Both the position numbers and the translations under genes were made by a program. Shown piece after piece: positions 12,414 to 24,512 of a DNA stretch of 24,735 bases (position 1 is its first letter; each line of letters opens with the position of its first letter). Under the pieces are notes generated by a model. That model was not told where the DNA came from. It made no database searches and was given only the letters and a program-made list of their open reading frames with translations. This DNA is from Thermoplasmatota archaeon (lineage in GTDB: Archaea > Thermoplasmatota > Penumbrarchaeia > Penumbrarchaeales > Penumbrarchaeaceae), in NCBI GenBank assembly GCA_965234725.1, contig CBDDUX010000099.1, forward strand, positions 1 through 24,735, read 5' to 3'.

Positions 12414-15400
12414 TTATTCTTCTTGTTTTTTACTCTTCTTCTTTAAACCTTTCTTTGGTACTGAGACTATCCCCGCTTCCTTGACGTCGGTAGCTTCCTC
12501 CATCGATCCCTCTTTCACCTCACCCTCCTCCTCCGCCTCCTCTTTTTCCTCTTTGATCTCCTTTGCAGGCTCTTCCGGTTCCTCTTCATGATCTTTTCTG
12601 CGTTTGACTACCAGCATGATTATGATGAGTATGATGATCAGAAGCAATACGGCAGCTGTTAGCAACAATATCCAGATCCAGCTACCATCGGAAGACCCTT
12701 CCTCCCTGTGGATTATTGTAATTGTTTCCGATTGATTGACACCTTTTGCAGGGATGAATAATTCCTTCTCAAAGTTCTCGAAACCATCAGCTGAGACCTT
12801 TATCCTGTAGCTCACTCCCGTCTTGACGTTTTCGATAATGACCGTTCCATCAGGACCGGTTATGGACTCCTTCCCATCGAAATCGACAACAGCCCACTGG
12901 ACCGTGTTGCCGTTCTCGTCAACTACGATTATAGTCAGGTTCGCTCTCTCCCATAGGATACTGGTCAGATCAATAGTGATATTGGTCCACCTGAAGGGAA
13001 GTACCTCCACCACTTCGGGATCGTGTTCTGAGTGGTCTGAAGAAAGGATAGTGATCGTCCAGTTTCCGGGAAGGAGGAAAGCTTCATAGATGCCCGGTTC
13101 GGTTTCAACCCCGATCACTTCTATGCTGCCGCTTTTTAATAGAACGGTTATCCCAGAAACTGGCTCGCTGTCTTCATCCTGGACTGTAACGGCAAGGTAT
13201 CCCTCCGTCAACAGGGTCGTGAAAGAGTAGAATGCCCCTTCATTATCATCGGTAACGTCATTTCCGGATGGTTCCACGGCAAAGATGTAGAAGTAATAGG
13301 TAGTGTTGGGTAGGAGGTTATCAACCTGGAAGAAGTGATCCTTTCCGAGTGTTGTAGGACCGTGAGCGGAGAGGTCCTCAACGGAAGATCCTAGGAATAG
13401 TGTACATGTGGTGGGTTCATTTGTCTCCCAAGATATTTTGGCGGTCTTTGCACCGAAGATCCACTCCAAGTTGGAGAAGGTTGGCCATGTCAGGTCGTTT
13501 GCCTCAAGACTTACATGATTGCTAAAGGGGGAAGGATTACCTGCTTCGTCTATGGCCCGGACCGCAAAAATGTTCTCGGGATCGGACATGTCCTGAATGA
13601 CTATTGTGGTATCGGCGGTCGAAGAGACAATTCGTACGGATGACTTGACACTGCCGGGGGATCTGGTCATATCCGCTTCCACCAGATGTACCTCGTACAT
13701 TTCCGCATCTGGACTGAGAGATATCTTCCAGGATAGAGTGAATCTATCTTCAGTGATATCGAATATTCTAAGGTCACGTGGTGGTTTAGGACCAATGAAG
13801 TCCTGTGCCATCACCTCTACCGAGGTTGAGGGTGGACTCTCCAGCCCCACCTCATCGACTGCAGTGATCCTGTAATTTGCCAGGGTGCCATGGGGAGTCG
13901 TTGAATCATCGAAAACATTTTCCGTTACCTCCCCTACCTGGGTCCAATTTTCATTTTCCAGAGAATATATCCTATAAGACACCGTATCATCTGTATTCAC
14001 ATCCCAGGTAAGCCTGTTTGATTCTCCATCGGGAACAGATTCACCTTGTAGGTTCTTTGGTGTTGAGGGACGTCTGATGTCGCCAATGATGAATTCTTCG
14101 GTATGGTCTCTGGAAGCATCCACAGAGCGGTTTCCTTCCCATGACCTGTCCAAGGTGGCGTTAACTGTGAATTCAACCGAGTGTTCGGTATCTGTCGATG
14201 CAGACCTGGTCAGGTACTTGATCCAGTACTTCTCAGACATTCCATCTGGTCCTGTTAAAGGTTCTATTCCCTCGAAAAGAGGGGTGGAGTGGACCGTGGA
14301 ATTTTCAACATCAATCTTGAATTGTGCTCCCTCGACGGGATCAATACCATCCTCATGGAGGACTTTCAGGTCAATATTACTGTAAAACCTGATCCTTGAT
14401 GCAGCATCATTAATGATATTCAAGCCAACTATTTCACAGCTGTAAAGTCCCGCATCGGATCCTTCATCAATGTTCAATGCAACTCTCTCCTCAGACCTTC
14501 CATCGATCCTTGAGTTATACAACTTCAGATCGGAGGACCTCATCATTAAAGATGTACCCATATGGTCCGAATAATCGAACTCAATATCATCCCCCGATAT
14601 AATCGAGTTGAAAAACTGAGCTCCTGACGTAATCCTTGATCCACTGATATCGATATCTTCAGAATATGCCACGGTCATCGGGCAGGATGTGGGGCCATTG
14701 ATCAAGTATGTTGAAGATGTTGAGTTTGCAATGAAAACCTGACCGTAATCATCAAGGTCCATTGATATTCCAGAGTCTCCGAAGGAATAGAAAATGGGAT
14801 TTCCATCGATGGTATTATTCATAGATATATTGTGATCAAGATGACTTACTTCTTCGAATATCGGCTTGAAACCGATCTCTGTTCCAATAATCTCGTTCTC
14901 ATAGGCTCTGAGACCATTACACTTTTCAATAACAACAGGTATTTGGCAATCCACGTAGTTGTTCTCCACGATCATAGGAGTTGAATCTTCGATCACCATT
15001 GTTCCGTTCTGGCATCTGATGAAACTGTTGCCTTTTGAGAGCTGTTTTGTATTGTTCAATATCTCTCCCACTTCGCAGTCGACAATGTCATTTTCCTCAT
15101 AGTTATAGACCTCCGAGCCGATGATGTTCACTCCGACGGAACAGTTCTCTATTCTATTATTGGAGATAGACCCTACATAGGAATTCTGGGCGATCCAACC
15201 GAACGCGACCATAATCCCGTCCCCGCTGTTGTTGATCCGGTTGTTCTCCACCTCGGCCCAGGTTCCTTGAAGGTAGATCGCATGCCCTGATATGTTGTTG
15301 AAGGTGTTATCCAGTATCCGGATATTCTTGATGGTGGAGAGGTCATCATGGTCATTTCCGTGGACCCATACTCCTTGCCTGCTGTCGAAGAAATTCGCAT

Positions 15401-15839
15401 TCTTTACAACATGGTGATCACCATGCTGAATCTTGATGGCGGAATCGTTCCATGTGGTCCCGCTGAAATTGTAGTCACCTCCGTCTATCGTTACCGGAGT
15501 CGATGATGCAATCGTAACCATGGTGCCATTACTACCCGGAGGGCCGCGGCTATTGCCCCCACCAAGCAAGGTGAAGCTTTCACCCGAGGCAGCCTTCAAG
15601 GTTATCCCCTTACTTATCATCAGTCTCTCATGATACTCTCCCTGGTGAACAATGATGGTTGTGCCTTCACTGGCCAGATCTATGGCCAATTGAATGGAAT
15701 CCACCTGGAGGTCCCTACCTACATGGATCTCTTCCAACTTCACACCAAGATCCGTTATCGTCGACAGGGAGAAGATAATGGAAATCAACCCAAGACCGGC
15801 AATCAGAATGGCCGTTAGAACCCTTCTTTCAATCAACAT
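12414..15839 (-). CDS. Large surface protein: right-handed beta-helix (pectin lyase/NosD-like), FN3 domains, CarboxypepD_reg-like Ig domains, C-terminal TM anchor
   Basis: SIQLAIDLASEGTTIIVHQGEYHERLMISKGITL beta-helix cap followed by Asn-ladder repeats. FN3 motifs PSTPKNL..LTWD..YRITAVD and PKPPRDL..LSW..FAVRAIDEAGNPS. TM WIWILLLTAAVLLLIIILIIIMLVV-KRRK. E/K-rich tail. Confidence 0.92.
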   Translation of the reverse strand: MLIERRVLTAILIAGLGLISIIFSLSTITDLGVKLEEIHVGRDLQVDSIQLAIDLASEGTTIIVHQGEYHERLMISKGITLKAASGESFTLLGGGNSRGPPGSNGTMVTIASSTPVTIDGGDYNFSGTTWNDSAIKIQHGDHHVVKNANFFDSRQGVWVHGNDHDDLSTIKNIRILDNTFNNISGHAIYLQGTWAEVENNRINNSGDGIMVAFGWIAQNSYVGSISNNRIENCSVGVNIIGSEVYNYEENDIVDCEVGEILNNTKQLSKGNSFIRCQNGTMVIEDSTPMIVENNYVDCQIPVVIEKCNGLRAYENEIIGTEIGFKPIFEEVSHLDHNISMNNTIDGNPIFYSFGDSGISMDLDDYGQVFIANSTSSTYLINGPTSCPMTVAYSEDIDISGSRITSGAQFFNSIISGDDIEFDYSDHMGTSLMMRSSDLKLYNSRIDGRSEERVALNIDEGSDAGLYSCEIVGLNIINDAASRIRFYSNIDLKVLHEDGIDPVEGAQFKIDVENSTVHSTPLFEGIEPLTGPDGMSEKYWIKYLTRSASTDTEHSVEFTVNATLDRSWEGNRSVDASRDHTEEFIIGDIRRPSTPKNLQGESVPDGESNRLTWDVNTDDTVSYRIYSLENENWTQVGEVTENVFDDSTTPHGTLANYRITAVDEVGLESPPSTSVEVMAQDFIGPKPPRDLRIFDITEDRFTLSWKISLSPDAEMYEVHLVEADMTRSPGSVKSSVRIVSSTADTTIVIQDMSDPENIFAVRAIDEAGNPSPFSNHVSLEANDLTWPTFSNLEWIFGAKTAKISWETNEPTTCTLFLGSSVEDLSAHGPTTLGKDHFFQVDNLLPNTTYYFYIFAVEPSGNDVTDDNEGAFYSFTTLLTEGYLAVTVQDEDSEPVSGITVLLKSGSIEVIGVETEPGIYEAFLLPGNWTITILSSDHSEHDPEVVEVLPFRWTNITIDLTSILWERANLTIIVVDENGNTVQWAVVDFDGKESITGPDGTVIIENVKTGVSYRIKVSADGFENFEKELFIPAKGVNQSETITIIHREEGSSDGSWIWILLLTAAVLLLIIILIIIMLVVKRRKDHEEEPEEPAKEIKEEKEEAEEEGEVKEGSMEEATDVKEAGIVSVPKKGLKKKSKKQEE

Positions 15840-15967
15840 CCTTATTATTCCCCGTAATACTGGAATGCATGAATCTATATGATTAAATACTTTATTAATA
15901 GGGAAAACCCCGGAAACTCGAGGCGATAGTGAAATTTGTATATAATCAGAATCACATCCATGTTCAG

Positions 15968-16834
15968 ATGAAGGAAAGAACGAGGAAGATCCTGATCGGA
16001 GCAGGAGCTCTAATATTGGTTACAGCTTTGCTTATCACCGTGATCTCTCTTTTCAAGGAAAAAGATGAATCGAACGGTGACAATTGGGAGGAGCCCTTGG
16101 TGGAGTTCACGGAGATGGAGGTGACGGTCATGGATTCCTTTACAACAGATAGGGTTACGGGATTGGTTACCCCTCCTCTCTTCACCACAAACTTTCTTGT
16201 TCTGGACATGGAATTCACCAATCCTCTGAATGAAACCATCTTTTTCCTGCCCAATTCATTGGAATTCGTCACCGACCGGGATACCTACGGTCCGAACCTT
16301 TTTGATGAGTTCGTGGGAAGAGGTCTGGGTCAATCCGAGAACATCACCCCGCTTTCATCCATCTCTGGCTATCTCTACTTCGATCTCTTCCCGACAGAGA
16401 AACCCCTTCGACTTGTTTATCGTGATACCGATTACAATTTAACTTTCTCGGTGAACCTTTCGGGCATTGATCCAGATTACAGACCATGGAAGACCCCCCT
16501 GGATATCAAGATCACCGGATGCGGCAGGGAAGAGAACGGGTCAGGACGCGAGCAGCTTCTATACTTCACCCTCCAGGTTAATAATCCAACCGACAACTCA
16601 TCCCATTTCCAGTTCTGGCTTATGGATCTGGAATGCTTCAACGGTGTGATCCTCGACGGTCAGTTCCTCCCCCAACCGGAAGGGGATTACAAGTTCCGGC
16701 CGGGATGGAACGTCACATACAAGATGTATTTTGACATACCACCGGGATCGCCTGACATACCTAAGACCCTCTACCAGGAGGTGGAAGGAGTGTATCTCAA
16801 TGTGGATGAATCCCTTTATGAAGGGGTGATCTGA
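15968..16834 (+). CDS. N-terminally anchored protein with two DUF4352-like Ig domains
   Basis: MKERTRK followed by a TM segment. Two repeats with the pattern FLVLDMEFTNP...ITPLSSISGYLYFDL..EKP..LVY and YFTLQVNNP...FRPGWNVTYKMYFDIP..DIPKTLY. TATA-like TGTATATAA lies ~25 nt before ATG 15968. Confidence 0.8.
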   Translation: MKERTRKILIGAGALILVTALLITVISLFKEKDESNGDNWEEPLVEFTEMEVTVMDSFTTDRVTGLVTPPLFTTNFLVLDMEFTNPLNETIFFLPNSLEFVTDRDTYGPNLFDEFVGRGLGQSENITPLSSISGYLYFDLFPTEKPLRLVYRDTDYNLTFSVNLSGIDPDYRPWKTPLDIKITGCGREENGSGREQLLYFTLQVNNPTDNSSHFQFWLMDLECFNGVILDGQFLPQPEGDYKFRPGWNVTYKMYFDIPPGSPDIPKTLYQEVEGVYLNVDESLYEGVI

Positions 16835-16847
16835 TGTCGGGTGTTTA

Positions 16848-19800
16848 TCAGCCGCCAAGCAGCATGTCCGATCTGGTCCTGGGTGTCCCCTTGGATATGT
16901 AGATCTTAAATAGGTTGATCCTGAAACTATCATCGAATATCTTGATCTCGAACAATACCAGTCTTCCACCCATCATAATCCAGAATCCGATCGACACACG
17001 CCAGGGCTTGTATCCCGAATCCGCAATGACCTGTATACCTATGGGAAGTACGAGCGATATCTTCAGATCGATAATCGTGAACTTGAAGAACCATAAGTTC
17101 AGAATGATCCTCGCCCACATCTCTCCCAGAGGATATATATCAAATATCATTTTGAAGAACGGCTTGAATATCAATCTCGCCTCTATTACAAGGTAAAGCC
17201 CGGCTCCGATATCGAACCCGATAGCCCTCAGGACTCCGAAGACGACGTTGAACAATTCAGATACTCCGGGAGTGAGCGATCCGCTCCCTCCCGTCACGAT
17301 ATCCAGTATGAAGGTCCCGGGATTCGACCATGCCTTCAGCCTTATCTTTATCTTGATCCCCAACTCGTATAGGCCAAAAGAATTGACCGCGGGATACCTC
17401 AATCCGCTGGAATGCTCTTTGTAAACGAACTTAAGCTGGACTCCAACAATGAAGGTAATCGACTCGATACCTGGCCTGTCGTTCATCTTCTTCCAGCTGT
17501 ATTTCAGACCTGAGGAATGGGTCTCGTTCACATCCTTGCTGTTATCTTTTGATTCATGGGTGTATTCCAGACGGATCCTGAGATAATAGGACTTTCCCAC
17601 CTCCATCTTTTCTACGTCTGTATAATTAAGGTCCACAATCTTGAGCTGTAGAGTATCACCTATGTTGAGCTTGGGGACCTCCAAACCGGGAATGGGGATA
17701 TCCGGTATCTTGGGAATGAAGCTCAAGTCTATATTGAAGCCTAAACCCAGTATACAGACTTCAATGGAATTTCCGGCCTCCTTGACCTTGGGATTTGCGC
17801 TTTCTCCATGATCGAAAACAGGAAGGGGTGTGACATAGATCTCGGGATACATCCTGGCATGATATCCGTCTCTTTGTTGGCTGACCCTGAATGAATAATG
17901 ACCGCTTGCGAGCTCCACGTTGGTGGAATTGGTGACCCACATCCCGCTCTCCCCGACAAATGCAAAGGTGACTTCAAGTTCCGCTCTGGTGGTGTTGATC
18001 ACACATTTCAAGACCACCTGACTTCCTTCTGGTTCGAACGCTTCTATTGTGAGCCTCTGAGCCTTCGATTGTGGGATGTCCACTTCGAATTCTGCCCAAT
18101 CCTCAGAATTGTTGAATTGTACATAAGGCCTCGAGTACTCATCATCGAACCCAGCAGTGACTCCCGAGGTATAGTTGTAGACAGAAAGGTCCTCTAGTGT
18201 CAAAGTATCCTTTATTCTGAGGTCTGAAGTACTCTCTGTTAGAGTGATGTCCACGACATCATTGGTATAGCCGTGTTCCACATCTATCAGTTTCCTGCCT
18301 TTCTTCTGGATGATAAAGGTCTCGAGCGTTCTTACCGCAGAGAGCTTGAGGTTTTTACCTCCCCCTAAACCTGCCGTGGTTATCTTAATGGTGTCCTTTG
18401 GATAGTGATACAGGGTAAAAGAATAACACTGATCCGTTTTCGGTATGTCGAAGGATCCTTTCTGATTCCCCACCTCGTAGAACAGCTCCGCGGATACGTA
18501 ATGATCTCCTTCCCGTGTCAGGAAAGATACAATTTGCGTTTCAGCAAGAATGGAGAAACTTGTATATTCGAAATCCAAAGGTTTCGTCCTCATCTCGATG
18601 TTCTCCACATCTCCCACGGTCTCGTATGGGATCACCTCTATCCTGTCCTGTTTGATGTAGGAGTTGGCATACCAGTACGTCCTGAATGAAAGAGCCTTGT
18701 TCCTTCTATCTTTGGTGGAGAAATCCACGTTGAAGAACTGATATGAGTTGGGATTGATGAAATCATGACGATAAAGGGGCCTATAAGCGACCGGTTCATC
18801 ACCGAACCATACCGAAATATTCGCAACCAGGTCGTTATGACCAGCATTGTTGTTGATCATCAAGTGGAACTGGGCGATATAATCGTCGTCCTCCATATCT
18901 GTAGAGTTCAGGCTCTTGCACAGGTAGCCGGGAACCGGAGGAATCTGAGGTTCGATTGACCAACCGTTTCCCTCGTCCTTTGCTCCCTCCATGTGCTCCA
19001 TATCATCAGCATGGAACACCAATTTCTCGGTTTCTTTGGCCCGCTGATTGATAATACTGCTGGTGTACATAACGCTCTCGGCATCATACATTGCCACGAG
19101 GACCTTGTATTCACCGAAGGGCAGGTCAGTGACGAGATTTTCCCTGTTCTGCTCCTCCACTGCTTTGGCTGGGTCCCACTCCATTTCAACTATCGTGCTC
19201 TTGTGGGAAGCAACCATTATTCTGTCATCAAGGGCCACATCGAAGACACCTCCCGAAGGTGAAAGGATCGATAATTCGACATTTACGTAGGATGGAAGTG
19301 CCCCTTGGTTGATGACCCTGACCGGTATCTTCAATGTACCGTTATGCGAGATCTCAGTAAGGTGATCCAGTACCTCGATCTCTATATCATCGATGAGATT
19401 GATCACGAGGTCAAGGGATTCATCCTGGTCGTCGCCCCAGATATCCAGGGTCATACCGTCGCTCTCCCTTTCAACGGAGAGAAGCATCCGGTAGGTTCCC
19501 TTGGGATATGTGGATTTCTTCGGCTGGAAAAGGAGGTGGACTTCAGCCTCTCTACCCGGAAGAACTGTTACGTTCTTGGAATGTGCGAGATATTCCCTTC
19601 CGAATGGGTCATTGACAGTGAGATTGACCAAATAGGTCTCTATCTGGTCGGAGGGATTTACAACATGGGTCTCAACTATGATATCCTCGCCCTTGTAATG
19701 CTCGTAATTCAGAATGTTCAGAAGGTAATCGTTCGGAGACCGAAGCAGGGAGAGTGCAAGTGTGATATCGACTGAGAAATAGGTAGAGAACGAGAAGGCT

Positions 19801-22800
19801 CCTTCACCGAACTTAACAGCACCCGTGGGTATCTGGTCCTTGACCATATCATAGTAGAGAGAAATTATAGCACCTTCCCGGGATGCCGAGCAAGCAAAGT
19901 CATATTCGAACTTTTCAGGTAAAGAGAGAGATTCAAACTCATCGTCAAGGACCTGACCCTGAGGAGTCTTTGTTGCATCCTTTCCTGAATTCAGGAACTC
20001 TCCCGGAGTATGGGTCAGTGGTGCAAGGAGCTGCTTGAACAGAGTGTCACCATAATAGATTGGAAGAACGTCCTCAAGACCGAGGTATCCCATTGGGTAT
20101 CCTGTAGGATTGACCCATACCGAGTTAGAACTCGATATCCATGTAGAGATCTGGGTAAGCCAGGTCTGGTATCTGATGTTGTGATTTGTGTTATCGACAC
20201 CCTTGGAAAGGATTAGCTCATCGATCATTCCATCGAAATTATTTGATGAAGGGAACCCTCCAATGTAGATAGGGGATTGATCATAGATGACATTCGTCCC
20301 CGCATCCAGAACCTCGACCTCCTGGCCGTCTATCTGGAGTACAATTTCTGATCCGTCATAGAGGGCGGAGATCTTATGCCATTCGCCTTTTGATAATGCA
20401 GAGACGCCGGGTTCCCCGTGTTCGATGGAGAAGAAACGTTCCCCATTTCCAATGGAGAACCTTATAATATTACTGTCAGAACCGTCACCTTCCAGTTCCA
20501 CACGGTATCCTGTCTTATTGTTTTCGAGCCCTTTGGAAACCAGGGTCCAAACCTCCTCCTCGGATGGATTATGGTCGATCCTGACAAGGAACTCTATGGT
20601 GAATTCTTGAAGCTCCTGTTTCCTGTTGCCCATGACCTCAAGCCATTTATCACCCTGGAATGTGTACGATGTAATGAACTGAGGTTTGTAAACATCCTCG
20701 CCAGTATATAGAGAACCGTAAAACTTCCCATTACGATCGTAGTAGCTCTCGAAATTCAGAGAGGGTTGTATCGAGGAGAGGTCCCATGTGTCGCTGTCGA
20801 TCGTCCCTGATGTTCCCTGAAGAAAGTATTCGATCGAGCCTATGATGGCCTCCAAGGGTTTTGCTGTCCATGAAAGGGATCCGTTATTATCGTTGTTGGC
20901 AATAAGGAGGCTGTCAATGTTCCTGACGTCCATGCTGCTGTTCACATTCAATGGTCCGTGGAATATCTCCACAGTGCTGGCGTAACGATCCAGAAGCTCA
21001 ACTTTGACTGCATTACCCGGTACAGTTCTGTCTATGGAGACGATAAGGGTCATCCACTCCCCAATATCGAACCCATCATTGTAAGGGAGAGTAAAGAAAA
21101 TGCTTTTCCACCCAGTGGATTCTTCAAGGGCTATCTCCAGCTCGACCTCACCGCTGTCTGCCCGATCGTTCCAGAGCTTCATCGACAAGAATGTCTCGTT
21201 GAGAGTATCCTGGTCCCAGAAGGAGGCCATCTGAGCATAATCGTTCTTTGACGGGAGGTCCATTATCTTGAGGTTCATAGTGAGATCGAGACCGCTCGCC
21301 ATGTGATCGGATGAACTCCCGATATCCGCTGGCAGGTCTGCAAGGCCGTTGATGAAGAATGGGAGGTAAAGAGATTGTTCGATCCCCTTCGGTCCTTGAT
21401 TCTGTATCCAGAAAGCATTATTTGGTTTTCTGGATTTTGGGAAATCCTCTATGAAGTTGCCAAGGGAGGAGCTATCCTCCGGTTTGTCGTTGTATTCATT
21501 GAAATGCATCAGGAGAACCGTATCCTTTCCACCCTTGTACTCATCAACATAATTCTCGGGGATTGGAAGAAGTGAGCCATGGGTATTGATCAAAGCATAA
21601 TCCTCTGCGTTTTCCTCCATCATCTGAATGAACTCCGAAAGATCGGTTATCTCCTTCCAGGAATAGGACAATGCATATTCTTCGGCAACGTCCCGGAGCT
21701 TTTCCTTGATCTCTGCCACCTGCTCATCACTAACCTCCCTTTCGATGTTATCTATCTTGAGCACGGCGAAGTTGATATGGCCTCCAGGTCTGATGCGGTC
21801 GGTGGGAAGTACCGCAACATCCCTGATCCTTCTATAAGAAACAAGGAATGCCGTTGAGTACATCTCGAATGGATCGTCACCGAATCTGAATATCAGCTGA
21901 TCGAGGTAATAAATTCCAACGACCAGAACGTGCCTACCTTCGCTGAATCCCAGATCAGTTGGGATCTCAAAGACAAGTGAATCGGACAAGTTCTTTGCAT
22001 CCAGATCGAGGAACTGGTTAGCGATTTGATATTCATTTCCGAAAGCATCATAACAGACTATCTTCACTCTGACAGCAATGGTTTGGTCCAGGTCGTTGGC
22101 AATCACGAACGAGCCGTTAATGTGATCGTTCTCCTTGTCAAGAAGTAGAGCTTTTTTATCCATGCTCAGGTCCATAACGAAAACCTTGGGGTCAAGATAT
22201 CTTGCCCCAAGGGCAATGGTATCAGTATTGTAGCGGTCGATCTGGTTGATCCTGCCTGAGGTTATGGGGAATTGCTGAGAGTACTTGAAGACCTGTGAAA
22301 CGTTCACACCCGAATTAACCACACAACCAAGTTTTACCTCGAGCTTCCGGTCAGGTGTGAATACTTGCCTGGATGAGAACTCCACCTCGCATGTTTCTAT
22401 ATACTCCTTGTTATCGAACTCCATCAGATATTCCTTCATCTCCCCCATCATCATCATTCTGGACTTGCCGATCATCTTGTTCGTTCCTAGGTCCCTGACT
22501 CTTACATCTATAGGAACCTCGCCTGTTGAGGTGGTCGAGGCATGGAAATATATCCCATCTACGATGCGGCCTCCTATTTCGAACACTTGTGAAACCATCG
22601 TGAATTGGGATAAAATATCTAGAGATTCGGTTTCGAACCTTGTCCCAACAGTGATTGTTGAGGTTACGTCCAGGGGTTCCGTAATATTGATCCTGCTTTT
22701 TGCAAAATCCCCGATCTTCTCGTCAATGAGTTTGGTCTCCTCTACCTCTTGAGCATTCGATGAGAGGGGTGACATCGCCGCCACCATAAGGAGAAGTACA

Positions 22801-24512
22801 AAGAATATTGCCATCTCCTCGTTCAGGTCGCCCTCCTTCATGGAACTCAATCTTCTCACGACAAATACAGCTGCTATCAGGATCATGATGAGTATAAGGG
22901 CTATCAATACGAGTATCAAAAAAGCACTTGTTCCTTTTTCACTTGAATCATCATCGTCATCTGTAGTATCATCAGTCGTATCATCGTCAGTGGTATCATC
23001 ATCGGTGGTATCGTCATCAGTTGTATCGTCATCATCATCGGTGATATTGTCGTCATCATCTGTGGTATTATCATCATCGTCTGGTATGTCATCGTCATCA
23101 TCGTCTGGCTCGACGGCTCCGGGGAAGTTGGAGTAGAAATCCTCAACCTGGCCCTCGATATTGACCGTGATAAAATAGGGGACGACCCTGTTCTCCGCAT
23201 CGTTCGTTCTAAACAGTACCAGTAGATCGTAAATCCCGGGGTAGTCTGCCTCGACCTGCAGATTCAGGTTAATTTCCTCACCGGGATCAATGTCGAAACT
23301 GTAGATAGAGGAGGATATGACGATATTATCTGTTCTCTTAGGTACTTCAATATATCCGTTTAGCAGGGAATTACCCGTATTTTGTATCGTCAAATTCTTT
23401 CGATATATCCCCTCCGTTGTCCAGGCCTCAATAACCCATTCCTGATCGTTTATCTCGAAGTTGGGATTCCTCTGTGTCTTTTCCAATTCTGAGAAATCTA
23501 TAAGATAGGATGGAACATTTTGACCGCCTTCCATGAGATAATCTGTATAAGATATCAGAAGCGGTACTATGTCCGTAATATGTTCAGTCTGGAATATGAT
23601 CTGATCGCTCCATATATAACCGTCAAAGAGAGATACCGCGATGCTCTCGATATTCTCTATTCCGTATCCTCCGATGTTAGTAACCCAAGCCAGTGCAAGG
23701 CGGTCCTTGTAAACTATGAGAGAGGGGGTCTGTATCTGTGCAATATCGTAGGAAACCCTGTAAGGTTCCGTCCATTGATCCCCGTTAGCAGTTGAGCTTA
23801 TGAAGATCGCGTCATCCTCCGCCTCCCACGCATTACCCTGGTGGGTGATCTCCTCATCCTGGGTCTGAACGAAGGAAATGTACAACCTTTCCTTGAACAC
23901 AGCAAGGGAGGGCATTTTATCGTTGAGATCACTCTTGAAGAGGACCTCTGGATCGGTCCAGCTTTTTCCGTCATCCAGACTTTTTATAACAGCGATGTCG
24001 TTGGAAAAACCAATGGATCCATTGGCCGAACCGCCCTGCTCGAAAGCAAGATAAAGGGATCCATGGAAATAGGAGAAGGAAGGATTCTGAAATGGAGCCC
24101 CTTCGAGTAGCATCGATCTACCGACAACATTTGTACCATCATACCTGATCGTCATTAGCCTGGTGTTAAAGAAATCATCTTCGACGATATAGGCTATCAG
24201 GAAGAAACCGTCCGCCGTGTAGATCATGGCCGCCTGTTCAGCATCCTCATCCGTGATTAAACGCGGGTTCTCGATTACGCCGCCGTGATAGTCCGAGAAA
24301 ACGAGCCCTTCCTGAGTGGAATGGATAACATGCACGATACCCTTATCGTCAATGCATCCATCGAAGCTCCACTCCTGGTCATCAATCCTCTCCAGAGTCG
24401 TTTGGGCAGAGGCAAAGACAAATAAAAGTGAGGAAATGAACAATGTTCCCGCAAGGAAGAAACCTATGACTTCTTTCCCAAACCCATTTAATAACATAAA
24501 TTCAAATTGCAT
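16848..24512 (-). CDS. Giant multidomain exported protein (2554 aa): Asp-box/BNR propeller, Ig domain, D/T linker, internal TM + second signal peptide, LamG domains, Ig/CARDB-like and CBM-like domains, amphipathic beta-rich C-terminus
   Basis: Uninterrupted ORF ending TGA TAA. Signal ...LFVFASA|QTT. Asp-boxes SLDDGKSW and STANGDQW. LamG signature FTIEFLVRID..GEWHKISALYDGSEIVLQIDG..IYIGG..FDGMIDEL. CBM6-like FNNSEDWAEFEVDIP. Confidence 0.92.
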   Translation of the reverse strand: MQFEFMLLNGFGKEVIGFFLAGTLFISSLLFVFASAQTTLERIDDQEWSFDGCIDDKGIVHVIHSTQEGLVFSDYHGGVIENPRLITDEDAEQAAMIYTADGFFLIAYIVEDDFFNTRLMTIRYDGTNVVGRSMLLEGAPFQNPSFSYFHGSLYLAFEQGGSANGSIGFSNDIAVIKSLDDGKSWTDPEVLFKSDLNDKMPSLAVFKERLYISFVQTQDEEITHQGNAWEAEDDAIFISSTANGDQWTEPYRVSYDIAQIQTPSLIVYKDRLALAWVTNIGGYGIENIESIAVSLFDGYIWSDQIIFQTEHITDIVPLLISYTDYLMEGGQNVPSYLIDFSELEKTQRNPNFEINDQEWVIEAWTTEGIYRKNLTIQNTGNSLLNGYIEVPKRTDNIVISSSIYSFDIDPGEEINLNLQVEADYPGIYDLLVLFRTNDAENRVVPYFITVNIEGQVEDFYSNFPGAVEPDDDDDDIPDDDDNTTDDDDNITDDDDDTTDDDTTDDDTTDDDTTDDTTDDDDDSSEKGTSAFLILVLIALILIMILIAAVFVVRRLSSMKEGDLNEEMAIFFVLLLMVAAMSPLSSNAQEVEETKLIDEKIGDFAKSRINITEPLDVTSTITVGTRFETESLDILSQFTMVSQVFEIGGRIVDGIYFHASTTSTGEVPIDVRVRDLGTNKMIGKSRMMMMGEMKEYLMEFDNKEYIETCEVEFSSRQVFTPDRKLEVKLGCVVNSGVNVSQVFKYSQQFPITSGRINQIDRYNTDTIALGARYLDPKVFVMDLSMDKKALLLDKENDHINGSFVIANDLDQTIAVRVKIVCYDAFGNEYQIANQFLDLDAKNLSDSLVFEIPTDLGFSEGRHVLVVGIYYLDQLIFRFGDDPFEMYSTAFLVSYRRIRDVAVLPTDRIRPGGHINFAVLKIDNIEREVSDEQVAEIKEKLRDVAEEYALSYSWKEITDLSEFIQMMEENAEDYALINTHGSLLPIPENYVDEYKGGKDTVLLMHFNEYNDKPEDSSSLGNFIEDFPKSRKPNNAFWIQNQGPKGIEQSLYLPFFINGLADLPADIGSSSDHMASGLDLTMNLKIMDLPSKNDYAQMASFWDQDTLNETFLSMKLWNDRADSGEVELEIALEESTGWKSIFFTLPYNDGFDIGEWMTLIVSIDRTVPGNAVKVELLDRYASTVEIFHGPLNVNSSMDVRNIDSLLIANNDNNGSLSWTAKPLEAIIGSIEYFLQGTSGTIDSDTWDLSSIQPSLNFESYYDRNGKFYGSLYTGEDVYKPQFITSYTFQGDKWLEVMGNRKQELQEFTIEFLVRIDHNPSEEEVWTLVSKGLENNKTGYRVELEGDGSDSNIIRFSIGNGERFFSIEHGEPGVSALSKGEWHKISALYDGSEIVLQIDGQEVEVLDAGTNVIYDQSPIYIGGFPSSNNFDGMIDELILSKGVDNTNHNIRYQTWLTQISTWISSSNSVWVNPTGYPMGYLGLEDVLPIYYGDTLFKQLLAPLTHTPGEFLNSGKDATKTPQGQVLDDEFESLSLPEKFEYDFACSASREGAIISLYYDMVKDQIPTGAVKFGEGAFSFSTYFSVDITLALSLLRSPNDYLLNILNYEHYKGEDIIVETHVVNPSDQIETYLVNLTVNDPFGREYLAHSKNVTVLPGREAEVHLLFQPKKSTYPKGTYRMLLSVERESDGMTLDIWGDDQDESLDLVINLIDDIEIEVLDHLTEISHNGTLKIPVRVINQGALPSYVNVELSILSPSGGVFDVALDDRIMVASHKSTIVEMEWDPAKAVEEQNRENLVTDLPFGEYKVLVAMYDAESVMYTSSIINQRAKETEKLVFHADDMEHMEGAKDEGNGWSIEPQIPPVPGYLCKSLNSTDMEDDDYIAQFHLMINNNAGHNDLVANISVWFGDEPVAYRPLYRHDFINPNSYQFFNVDFSTKDRRNKALSFRTYWYANSYIKQDRIEVIPYETVGDVENIEMRTKPLDFEYTSFSILAETQIVSFLTREGDHYVSAELFYEVGNQKGSFDIPKTDQCYSFTLYHYPKDTIKITTAGLGGGKNLKLSAVRTLETFIIQKKGRKLIDVEHGYTNDVVDITLTESTSDLRIKDTLTLEDLSVYNYTSGVTAGFDDEYSRPYVQFNNSEDWAEFEVDIPQSKAQRLTIEAFEPEGSQVVLKCVINTTRAELEVTFAFVGESGMWVTNSTNVELASGHYSFRVSQQRDGYHARMYPEIYVTPLPVFDHGESANPKVKEAGNSIEVCILGLGFNIDLSFIPKIPDIPIPGLEVPKLNIGDTLQLKIVDLNYTDVEKMEVGKSYYLRIRLEYTHESKDNSKDVNETHSSGLKYSWKKMNDRPGIESITFIVGVQLKFVYKEHSSGLRYPAVNSFGLYELGIKIKIRLKAWSNPGTFILDIVTGGSGSLTPGVSELFNVVFGVLRAIGFDIGAGLYLVIEARLIFKPFFKMIFDIYPLGEMWARIILNLWFFKFTIIDLKISLVLPIGIQVIADSGYKPWRVSIGFWIMMGGRLVLFEIKIFDDSFRINLFKIYISKGTPRTRSDMLLGG
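22947..23105 (-). repeat. Asp/Thr-rich low-complexity linker (DDDxTT-type repeats) within the giant protein
   Basis: 53 codons, 35 of them Asp: DDDDDDIPDDDDNTTDDDDNITDDDDDTTDDDTTDDDTTDDDTTDDTTDDDDD. Confidence 0.95.

Follow-up and report, generated by a model that had tools for sequence, protein, structure and literature searches.

A conserved, predicted transmembrane hairpin between two putative ectodomains of a giant surface protein of Thermoplasmatota contains a candidate signal-peptidase site

The window analyzed here is a stretch of 24,735 nt, positions 1 to 24,735 of contig CBDDUX010000099.1 (C99) in the assembly GCA_965234725.1. The genome (3.5 Mb, 97.65% complete) comes from a Thermoplasmatota archaeon: its small-subunit (SSU) rRNA scores 1514.9 bits against the archaeal model, and the nearest named relatives of its proteins and contigs are without exception Thermoplasmatota metagenome-assembled genomes (MAGs). 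The subject of this study is the giant surface protein P0001, which is encoded on the reverse strand by a gene present as a single full copy in the genome, and in particular the junction inside it, where a transmembrane (TM) helix that looks like a C-terminal anchor is followed after a short loop by a second hydrophobic segment that looks like a signal peptide. The features of the gene and of its neighbors are collected in the table. An earlier note, made from the sequence of the window, had described at this junction a D/T-rich linker, a first helix (TM1), an RR pair, a loop and a signal-like second helix (TM2), and translation of the gene confirmed both this order and the coordinates. The loop of 14 residues, which starts with RR and ends with EE, consists of RR at positions 553-554 followed by LSSMKEGDLNEE, and the methionine that opens TM2, Met567, is encoded by the ATG at 22814-22812. 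The roughly 1970 further residues that the note had described as lacking a terminal TM helix number 1,967; no helical terminal anchor was detected in this part by hydropathy, and its C-terminal hydropathy peaks do not exceed 1.85.

Table. Features of the giant surface-protein gene and its neighbors in the window. All identities are mean pairwise values among orthologs. aa, amino acids; ORF, open reading frame; Ig, immunoglobulin; KD19, Kyte-Doolittle maximum over 19 residues; run, length of the hydrophobic run
Feature	Position (nt)	Strand	Basis
Giant surface-protein gene P0001, 2554 aa	16848..24512	(-)	ORF list and translation
N-terminal signal, aa 1-36, ending ...FASA/QTT (site set by eye)	24405..24512	(-)	KD19 2.38; 26% identity, 5 orthologs
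N-module ectodomain, aa 37-466, BNR-like propeller and Ig-like domain	23115..24404	(-)	BNR_2 and HYDIN/VesB-like Ig matches in the family
Acidic D/T-rich linker, aa 467-529, hypervariable	22926..23114	(-)	25% identity
TM1, aa 530-552, AFLILVLIALILIMILIAAVFVV, predicted stop-transfer anchor	22857..22925	(-)	run 23, KD19 3.62
Predicted cytoplasmic loop, aa 553-566, RRLSSMKEGDLNEE	22815..22856	(-)	52% identity, 6 orthologs
TM2 hydrophobic core, aa 567-580, MAIFFVLLLMVAAM, internal start-transfer/signal-like	22773..22814	(-)	run 14, KD19 2.15; 78% identity
c-region, aa 581-587 (SPLSSNA); proposed signal-peptidase site between A587 and Q588 (nt 22752/22751)	22752..22772	(-)	Pro after core and -3/-1 rule
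C-module, aa 588-2554, large extracellular part	16851..22751	(-)	Laminin_G_3; no helical anchor by hydropathy
Hydrophobic all-beta C-terminal domain, aa 2225-2554	16851..17840	(-)	alignable in all family members; low-confidence AlphaFold2 model
Membrane-anchored DUF4352 protein, 301 aa	15929..16834	(+)	Pfam; adjoins the giant gene also in L030, L031 and L027
NosD/fn3 surface protein, 1141 aa, TM anchor and acidic tail	12414..15839	(-)	Pfam; syntenic in L029, L030, L031 and L027

The two helices of the junction were compared with reference sets drawn from the 1,373 open frames of at least 300 aa in this genome, which gave 238 C-terminal single anchors of exported proteins and 353 N-terminal signals. 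The hydrophobic run has a median of 22 residues in the anchors (interquartile range 18-24) versus 15 in the signals (12-18), and the median KD19 is 3.15 (2.82-3.47) versus 2.29 (2.01-2.51). The KD19 of TM1 exceeds that of each of the 353 signals and falls at the 85th percentile of the anchors, while TM2 is at the 5th percentile of the anchors in KD19 and at the 11th in run length, and at the 36th and 46th percentiles, respectively, of the signals. The combination of a run of at most 15 residues with a KD19 of at most 2.7 is found in 18/238 anchors versus 188/353 signals. By the genome's own standards, TM1 has the hallmarks of a typical anchor and TM2 those of a typical N-terminal signal. The same contrast is seen across the protein family, where the KD19 of TM2 ranges from 1.67 to 2.72 in 13 members, versus 2.58-3.97 for the 12 complete TM1 segments. 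The TM2 core is 13-15 residues long in nine of the 13 members and at most 19 in 12 of them; a proline follows within 4 aa of the core in 12/13, and a scripted search for a site obeying the -3/-1 rule found one after TM2 in 11/13. P0013 has the textbook n-h-c layout, with a lysine-rich n-region, a 13-residue leucine core, and then Pro and VHS. The resemblance of TM2 to a Sec signal, which the earlier note had pointed out, thus agrees with its short and weakly hydrophobic core and with the SPLSSNA-QE stretch, which has a proline and small residues at positions -3 and -1. The pattern [AVSTG].AQ occurs in 12/353 signals versus 4/1148 helices of polytopic proteins, a difference of little weight because the pattern was picked after the target had been seen.

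In every one of the 13 family members that span the junction, even at about 20-30% identity, the TM1-loop-TM2 hairpin lies in a single reading frame, and such a recurrence places this layout, as read from the sequences, beyond chance. The frames of five orthologs (L019, L020, L021, L022 and L002) are uninterrupted across the junction and all five have the same arrangement. An exhaustive search of 1.84 billion representatives by phmmer, with aa 1-1200 as the query, returned 97 matches at E ≤ 0.001, among which the long relatives were all fused: P0004, P0005 (2510 aa, 30%), P0011 (2041 aa, 29%), P0013 (2190 aa, 26%) and P0026 (2272 aa, partial). Those matches that were strong but short were contig fragments, and the remainder were generic BNR-like repeats or anchors made of an acidic linker and a TM helix. 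Neither a stand-alone N-module ending at TM1 nor a C-module with its own signal was found among these 97 matches. When the first 500 residues of the C-module were used in a length-matched word search, all five matches were fused, and two of them, P0103 (2593 aa) and P0105 (2534 aa, 48%), were new to the family, while a scan of the genome collection added a relative of 4,075 residues in L033 (22% identity). A scan of metagenome contigs gave one locus, L024, the frame of which matches P0013 over the compared stretches.

These data bear on the possibility that the junction is an artefact or the product of a recent event, that is, a misassembly, a frameshift or a recent fusion of adjacent genes, the last of which the earlier note had considered for two genes of one operon. 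The sole argument for it is the appearance of the two helices themselves, as TM1 looks like a C-terminal anchor and TM2 like an N-terminal signal. The same junction, however, recurs in assemblies made independently for at least four genera and, at 20-30% identity, in proteins from metagenomes, with the second hydrophobic segment kept in 13/13 members and no stand-alone N- or C-module among either the 97 phmmer or the five length-matched matches. Moreover, a 215-nt contig from the independent sediment run X2 bridges positions 22764-22978 without indels, so there is no sign of misassembly over the junction. Run X1, which holds the whole stretch and is possibly the source of this DNA, was not counted as independent, and the runs with a small share of the sequence matched mostly the GAT-rich linker. 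As far as these data reach, a recent fusion is refuted by the fused state of the distant relatives, and the chance that the junction is an artefact of any kind is practically negligible. Hence, the hairpin of the giant protein is real, ancient and conserved in a family of Thermoplasmatota surface proteins.

The distribution of this family is old but patchy, and the patchiness may come from loss or from transfer. With the C-module as the query, 41 related genomes yielded full-length or contig-truncated orthologs in G008, G009, G012 and G022; those in G021 and G023 were partial. Four further species of the genus were searched (G001-G004, 68-95% complete) and gave no member of the giant family, which does occur in four other genera of the same taxonomic family. 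The first domain of the C-module was detected in 5/37 genomes and in 4/18 genera of the class in the genome collection.

To describe how the hairpin evolves, the identity of each segment was calculated as the mean pairwise value among close orthologs, with borders for TM1 and the loop that are off by one residue. The N-terminal signal (0.26), the linker (0.25) and TM1 (0.33) are the most variable, followed by the loop (0.52), while the c-region reaches 0.61, the folded modules 0.62-0.71, and the TM2 core 0.78, which makes TM2 the most conserved segment of the whole protein. Because synonymous sites vary freely across the loop and TM2, this constraint acts at the level of the protein. The linker before TM1 is a hot spot of insertions: in three orthologs (among L019, L021, L022 and L002) it contains a TSP3-like calcium-binding motif (D.DGDGMPD.WE...), in L019 an insertion of about 170 aa includes a Big_5 Ig domain, and distant members have no acidic linker. 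The loop ranges from 6 to 84 aa in the 13 members, with a net charge from -3 to +26; the charge is -3 to 0 in the eight members of at least 48% identity and +3 to +26 in P0005, P0011, P0013 and the L033 frame.

The conservation of the hairpin and the contrast in hydrophobicity between its helices support the topology proposed in the earlier note, in which two ectodomains are joined by a stop-transfer helix and a signal-like helix. The N-terminal signal would export the ectodomain with the propeller and Ig-like domains, TM1 would stop the transfer and anchor this ectodomain, and the short loop would remain in the cytoplasm. TM2, acting as an internal start-transfer signal, would then re-open the Sec channel, so that the C-module of 1,967 residues would also be exported. 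In a last step, an archaeal signal peptidase of the Sec11 type would cut within SNA-QE, between A587 and Q588. The products would be an N-fragment held in the membrane by the TM1-loop-TM2 hairpin and a C-fragment with a free N-terminus, which could be retained at the surface without any helix of its own, either through its conserved, hydrophobic, beta-rich domain at the C-terminus or through an interaction with the N-fragment or a neighbor. We put the probability of signal-peptidase cleavage after A587, which would yield two proteins from one gene, at roughly 55%.

A candidate for the enzyme is encoded in the same genome, at G000:C18:20343-21458 (L040:544-1659, + strand). At 371 aa, the predicted protein is roughly double the typical length, and a long insertion separates its Ser box from the KGDxN box. 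It matches TIGR02228 with an E-value of 2.1e-8 (34.2 bits), and it aligns to human SEC11A (7p2p_A, E 6.6e-4) over the ...VVVQSGSM... and ...TKGDDN... boxes, so that the SGSM and KGD(D/N)N boxes are shared by the two proteins. It is 61% identical to a frame in G002, and in many relatives, consistent weak signal-peptidase matches were found in frames of 350-400 aa. Searches of this genome with TIGR02228, PF00717 and PF10502 gave no match and missed the 371-aa protein. Judged by its motifs and alignments, the genome very probably encodes a divergent, insertion-bearing Sec11-type signal peptidase.

The two readings that remain are this cleavage and an uncleaved helical hairpin, in which TM1 and TM2 would stay joined and one chain would display two ectodomains, the N-module with type I and the C-module with type II orientation. 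The shortness and low hydrophobicity of TM2 argue against a permanent hairpin, given its low percentiles among the anchors of the genome, as does the core of 13-15 residues followed by a proline, which most members have kept. On the other hand, the C-module otherwise lacks a helical anchor, and the 78% identity of TM2 is what would be expected of a lasting functional part. The conservation of TM2 is predicted neither by a disposable signal nor by a generic anchor, and in this respect TM2 evolves unlike an ordinary signal. It fits a retained helix that has a specific partner or must satisfy a specific demand, for example re-initiating the export of a domain of 2,000 residues; such a helix could equally well be retained in the N-fragment after cleavage, and its sequence-specific role there would explain why TM2 is the best-conserved part of the protein.

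Further observations weigh against cleavage, in part by favoring the uncleaved form. The n-side of TM2 has RR and K, but ends in the acidic EE, and the close orthologs are acidic there too. In the distant L033 frame and in P0026, TM2 is longer (26 and 17 residues) and the loops are long, which makes these segments less signal-like. Simple cleavage rules fail to separate TM2 from the helices of polytopic proteins (n=1148): a -3/-1 site is found in 0.80 of the signals versus 0.56 of the helices, which is weak discrimination, and the combination of a short core, a -3/-1 site and a proline in 0.266 versus 0.101, which is also weak. A proline after the core occurs in 0.50 of the signals versus 0.33 of the helices. 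Counted by lineage, the scripted -3/-1 rule is passed in 5/7 only. A cleavage-site matrix trained by expectation-maximization on the 353 N-terminal signals drifted into the hydrophobic core, hardly told the two sets apart (median scores of 6.68 for signals versus 4.76 for polytopic helices) and was dropped. The 371-aa candidate peptidase scores below the cut-off of TIGR02228 (34.2 versus 51.85 bits), and if the cut occurs, there is no proven means by which the costly C-module would be kept on the cell.

The comparison with a second hairpin protein of the same genome (G000:C28:9433-12615, - strand, identical with L041:434-3616, - strand; 1061 aa) points in the same direction. This protein consists of a signal, an FG-GAP propeller ectodomain, a TM1, the loop RRKGEIKTKT, a TM2 with Met as its first residue, and a propeller-like C-part of about 350 aa. 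It has the same layout as P0001, with no small-x-small site after TM2, and its ortholog in G018:C172 is also a single frame (1014 aa). A clean hairpin layout was found in only two of the 495 open frames of at least 600 aa in this genome, which are those of P0001 and of this FG-GAP protein. Taken together, cleavage is better supported than the uncleaved hairpin, which we regard as the less probable outcome, though one to be taken seriously.

A further way to obtain two proteins would be for translation to begin at Met567, either at an internal ribosome-binding site or on an internal transcript, so that the C-module would be made separately with its own signal. Met567 is kept in the eight members of at least 48% identity, and the earlier note had drawn attention to two Shine-Dalgarno-like motifs upstream of it. 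Both are there, but AAGGAGGG is separated from the ATG by 16-17 nt while GAGGAG directly adjoins this codon, and GGAGG is gone in two of the six close orthologs (L020 and L022) through synonymous or conservative changes. No Met is found at the start of TM2 in P0005, P0011, P0013, the L033 frame and P0026, and the reading frame is never interrupted. A 253-nt contig from an RNA library spans positions 22582-22831, with one end 17 nt upstream of the ATG, which is no real support for an internal start because contigs from RNA libraries show neither expression nor transcript ends. The motifs thus stand as observations, while the internal ribosome-binding site is unsupported, given that neither GGAGG nor the Met is conserved, and translation from Met567 is very unlikely.

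The domain content of the two modules was examined in Pfam and by structure prediction. Laminin_G_3 is matched at aa 1299-1433 with 52.2 bits (gathering cut-off 27.6), and it is found in 7/7 members. The propeller and Ig-like domains of the N-module are seen in the family, with BNR_2 in 4/7 members (best E 9.3e-6) and HYDIN/VesB-like Ig also in 4/7, while in P0001 itself the BNR_2 match (E 0.02, 14.7 bits) is below the cut-off of 31.4. The description of the C-terminal unit as lectin-rich in the earlier note was overstated, as there is one Laminin_G-type region. Its suggestion that the unit is released is doubtful, as the conserved hydrophobic domain at the C-terminus could hold the C-module on the cell. 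This hydrophobic, strand-rich domain makes up roughly the last 250-330 residues and aligns across all members, distant ones included. AlphaFold2 modeled it, at low confidence (mean predicted local distance difference test, pLDDT, 46.1), as all-beta with unusually long strands of 20-30 residues, and a search of the ESM Atlas with this domain gave a best score of 0.86 among unnamed clusters and no lead. It is possible that aa 2225-2554 serve as a non-helical anchor in the membrane or in oligomerization. An AlphaFold2 model of aa 520-900 has helices at aa 525-556 and 563-585 and, at a pLDDT of 46.2, decides nothing, while the prediction of a complex between the N-ectodomain (aa 37-464) and the first part of the C-module (aa 588-900) gave scores of 0.57, 0.01 and 0.00 in the individual runs, which weighs neither way. 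The conserved cysteines are one in the N-module (C53, in 6/7 of the rows covering it) and eight in the C-module.

A conserved, alpha/beta-looking domain at about aa 890-1000 (21500-21850) of the C-module has the invariant motif NTHG..LP.P, which comprises N976, T977, H978, G979, L982, P983 and P985 in the alignment. This domain of P0001 gave no match in Pfam; three motifs resembling NTHG..LP.P are visible in P0026.

The arrangement of P0001 can be compared with several known systems. The work on the vertebrate astrotactins Astn1 and Astn2 describes a signal, an N-terminal ectodomain, two TM helices and a large C-terminal ectodomain, with a cut just after TM2 by the signal peptidase of the endoplasmic reticulum, after which the fragments are joined by a disulfide and the upstream one keeps both helices (10.1101/493858). 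Internal cuts by signal peptidase are said there to be uncommon in cellular proteins and usual in viral polyproteins. In a study of model double-spanning proteins, the yeast enzyme cut after TM2, while longer or more hydrophobic segments escaped (PMC8277137). P0001 shares with the astrotactins the order of parts from the signal to the large C-terminal ectodomain, with a sidedness that is inferred here, and their Sec11-type cut after TM2 has its counterpart in a candidate Sec11-type enzyme and a predicted site. The differences are that there is no relation in sequence or domains, as P0001 has propeller/Ig and LamG parts and no astrotactin domains in Pfam; that the loop of P0001 is very short, the organism archaeal and the cleavage predicted only; and that a bridge in P0001 corresponding to the disulfide described for the astrotactins is speculation. 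By this analogy, the astrotactins are the closest cellular precedent for P0001, one that resembles it in its proposed working and not by homology.

The architecture of P0001 can also be set beside viral glycoproteins. In viral envelope precursors, such as bunyavirus Gn-Gc and flavivirus prM-E, a stop-transfer anchor, a short cytoplasmic stretch and an internal signal cut by the host signal peptidase give two surface proteins in equal amounts. P0001 also has an anchor, a short loop and an internal signal-like helix, but it is the product of a cellular gene in conserved chromosomal synteny with the DUF4352 and NosD-like genes and has no viral context, its products would be far larger, and a fusion machinery is not evident. 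In bacteria, the fbcH gene of Bradyrhizobium japonicum, reportedly described by Thony-Meyer and co-workers in 1991, is said to encode a cytochrome b-c1 precursor from which two membrane proteins arise via an internal signal peptide cut by a type I signal peptidase. An organellar case of two membrane proteins from one gene is the thylakoid PsbY polyprotein, in which the internal signal peptide is reportedly cut by a type I signal peptidase (Thompson et al. 1999; PMC8790069). These are small respiratory or photosynthetic subunits cut by a bacterial-type peptidase, while P0001 is a giant surface protein, and the part upstream of the internal signal is polytopic in fbcH or preceded by a second signal in PsbY. 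The N-module of P0001 up to RR554 looks exactly like an archaeal type I surface protein with a C-terminal TM anchor; it differs from such proteins in that the frame runs on into a second signal-like helix and 1,967 residues. In archaea, the C-terminal sorting signals recognized by archaeosortases (PGF-CTERM and kin) consist of a short motif, for example PGF, directly before a TM helix and a basic tail. No conserved motif of this kind was found before TM1, which is preceded by SSEKGTS in P0001 and by variable residues in the orthologs. Full-text searches on internal signals in archaea and in archaeal surface proteins turned up no description of a hairpin like that of P0001 in an archaeon.

A further-reaching proposal is that a Sec11-type peptidase acting on an internal start-transfer helix produces a two-subunit archaeal surface assembly from one gene, with TM2 kept in the N-fragment as a sequence-specific helix and the C-fragment held by a previously undescribed hydrophobic all-beta domain. 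Among cellular prokaryotes, such an assembly would be the first counterpart to the maturation of astrotactins and of viral glycoprotein precursors. We offer this proposal tentatively and consider it, as a whole, less likely than not.

The surroundings of the gene are partly conserved. The giant gene is followed by the convergent DUF4352 gene and then by the NosD/fn3 gene (12414-16834), an order that recurs in the syntenic loci given in the table. In L030 and L031, the region upstream of the giant gene has a divergent frame of about 1,415 aa, while in this genome the contig ends 223 nt upstream of it. The earlier note had compared the junction with the anchors of two neighboring surface proteins. 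It is correct that these proteins (1141 and 773 aa) have a TM helix and basic residues near their C-termini, but no D/T-rich linker precedes the helix, and an acidic cytoplasmic tail of 60-100 aa follows it. The exported repertoire of this archaeon appears very large: by a heuristic count, 353 of the 1373 open frames of at least 300 aa have an N-terminal signal and no internal TM helix, and 238 of these 353 have a single C-terminal anchor.

The strong conservation of TM2, set against the free drift of TM1 and the N-terminal signal, speaks for a sequence-specific role of the internal signal, which is explained neither by an anchor nor by a throw-away signal. With a hairpin of about 60 residues and a defined candidate site, the P0001 family offers a small, testable model. 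If the cut occurs, archaeal signal peptidase would serve, besides the removal of N-terminal signals, as a maturation enzyme for multi-subunit surface structures, and the giant, seemingly single surface genes of uncultured archaea would have to be read as precursors.

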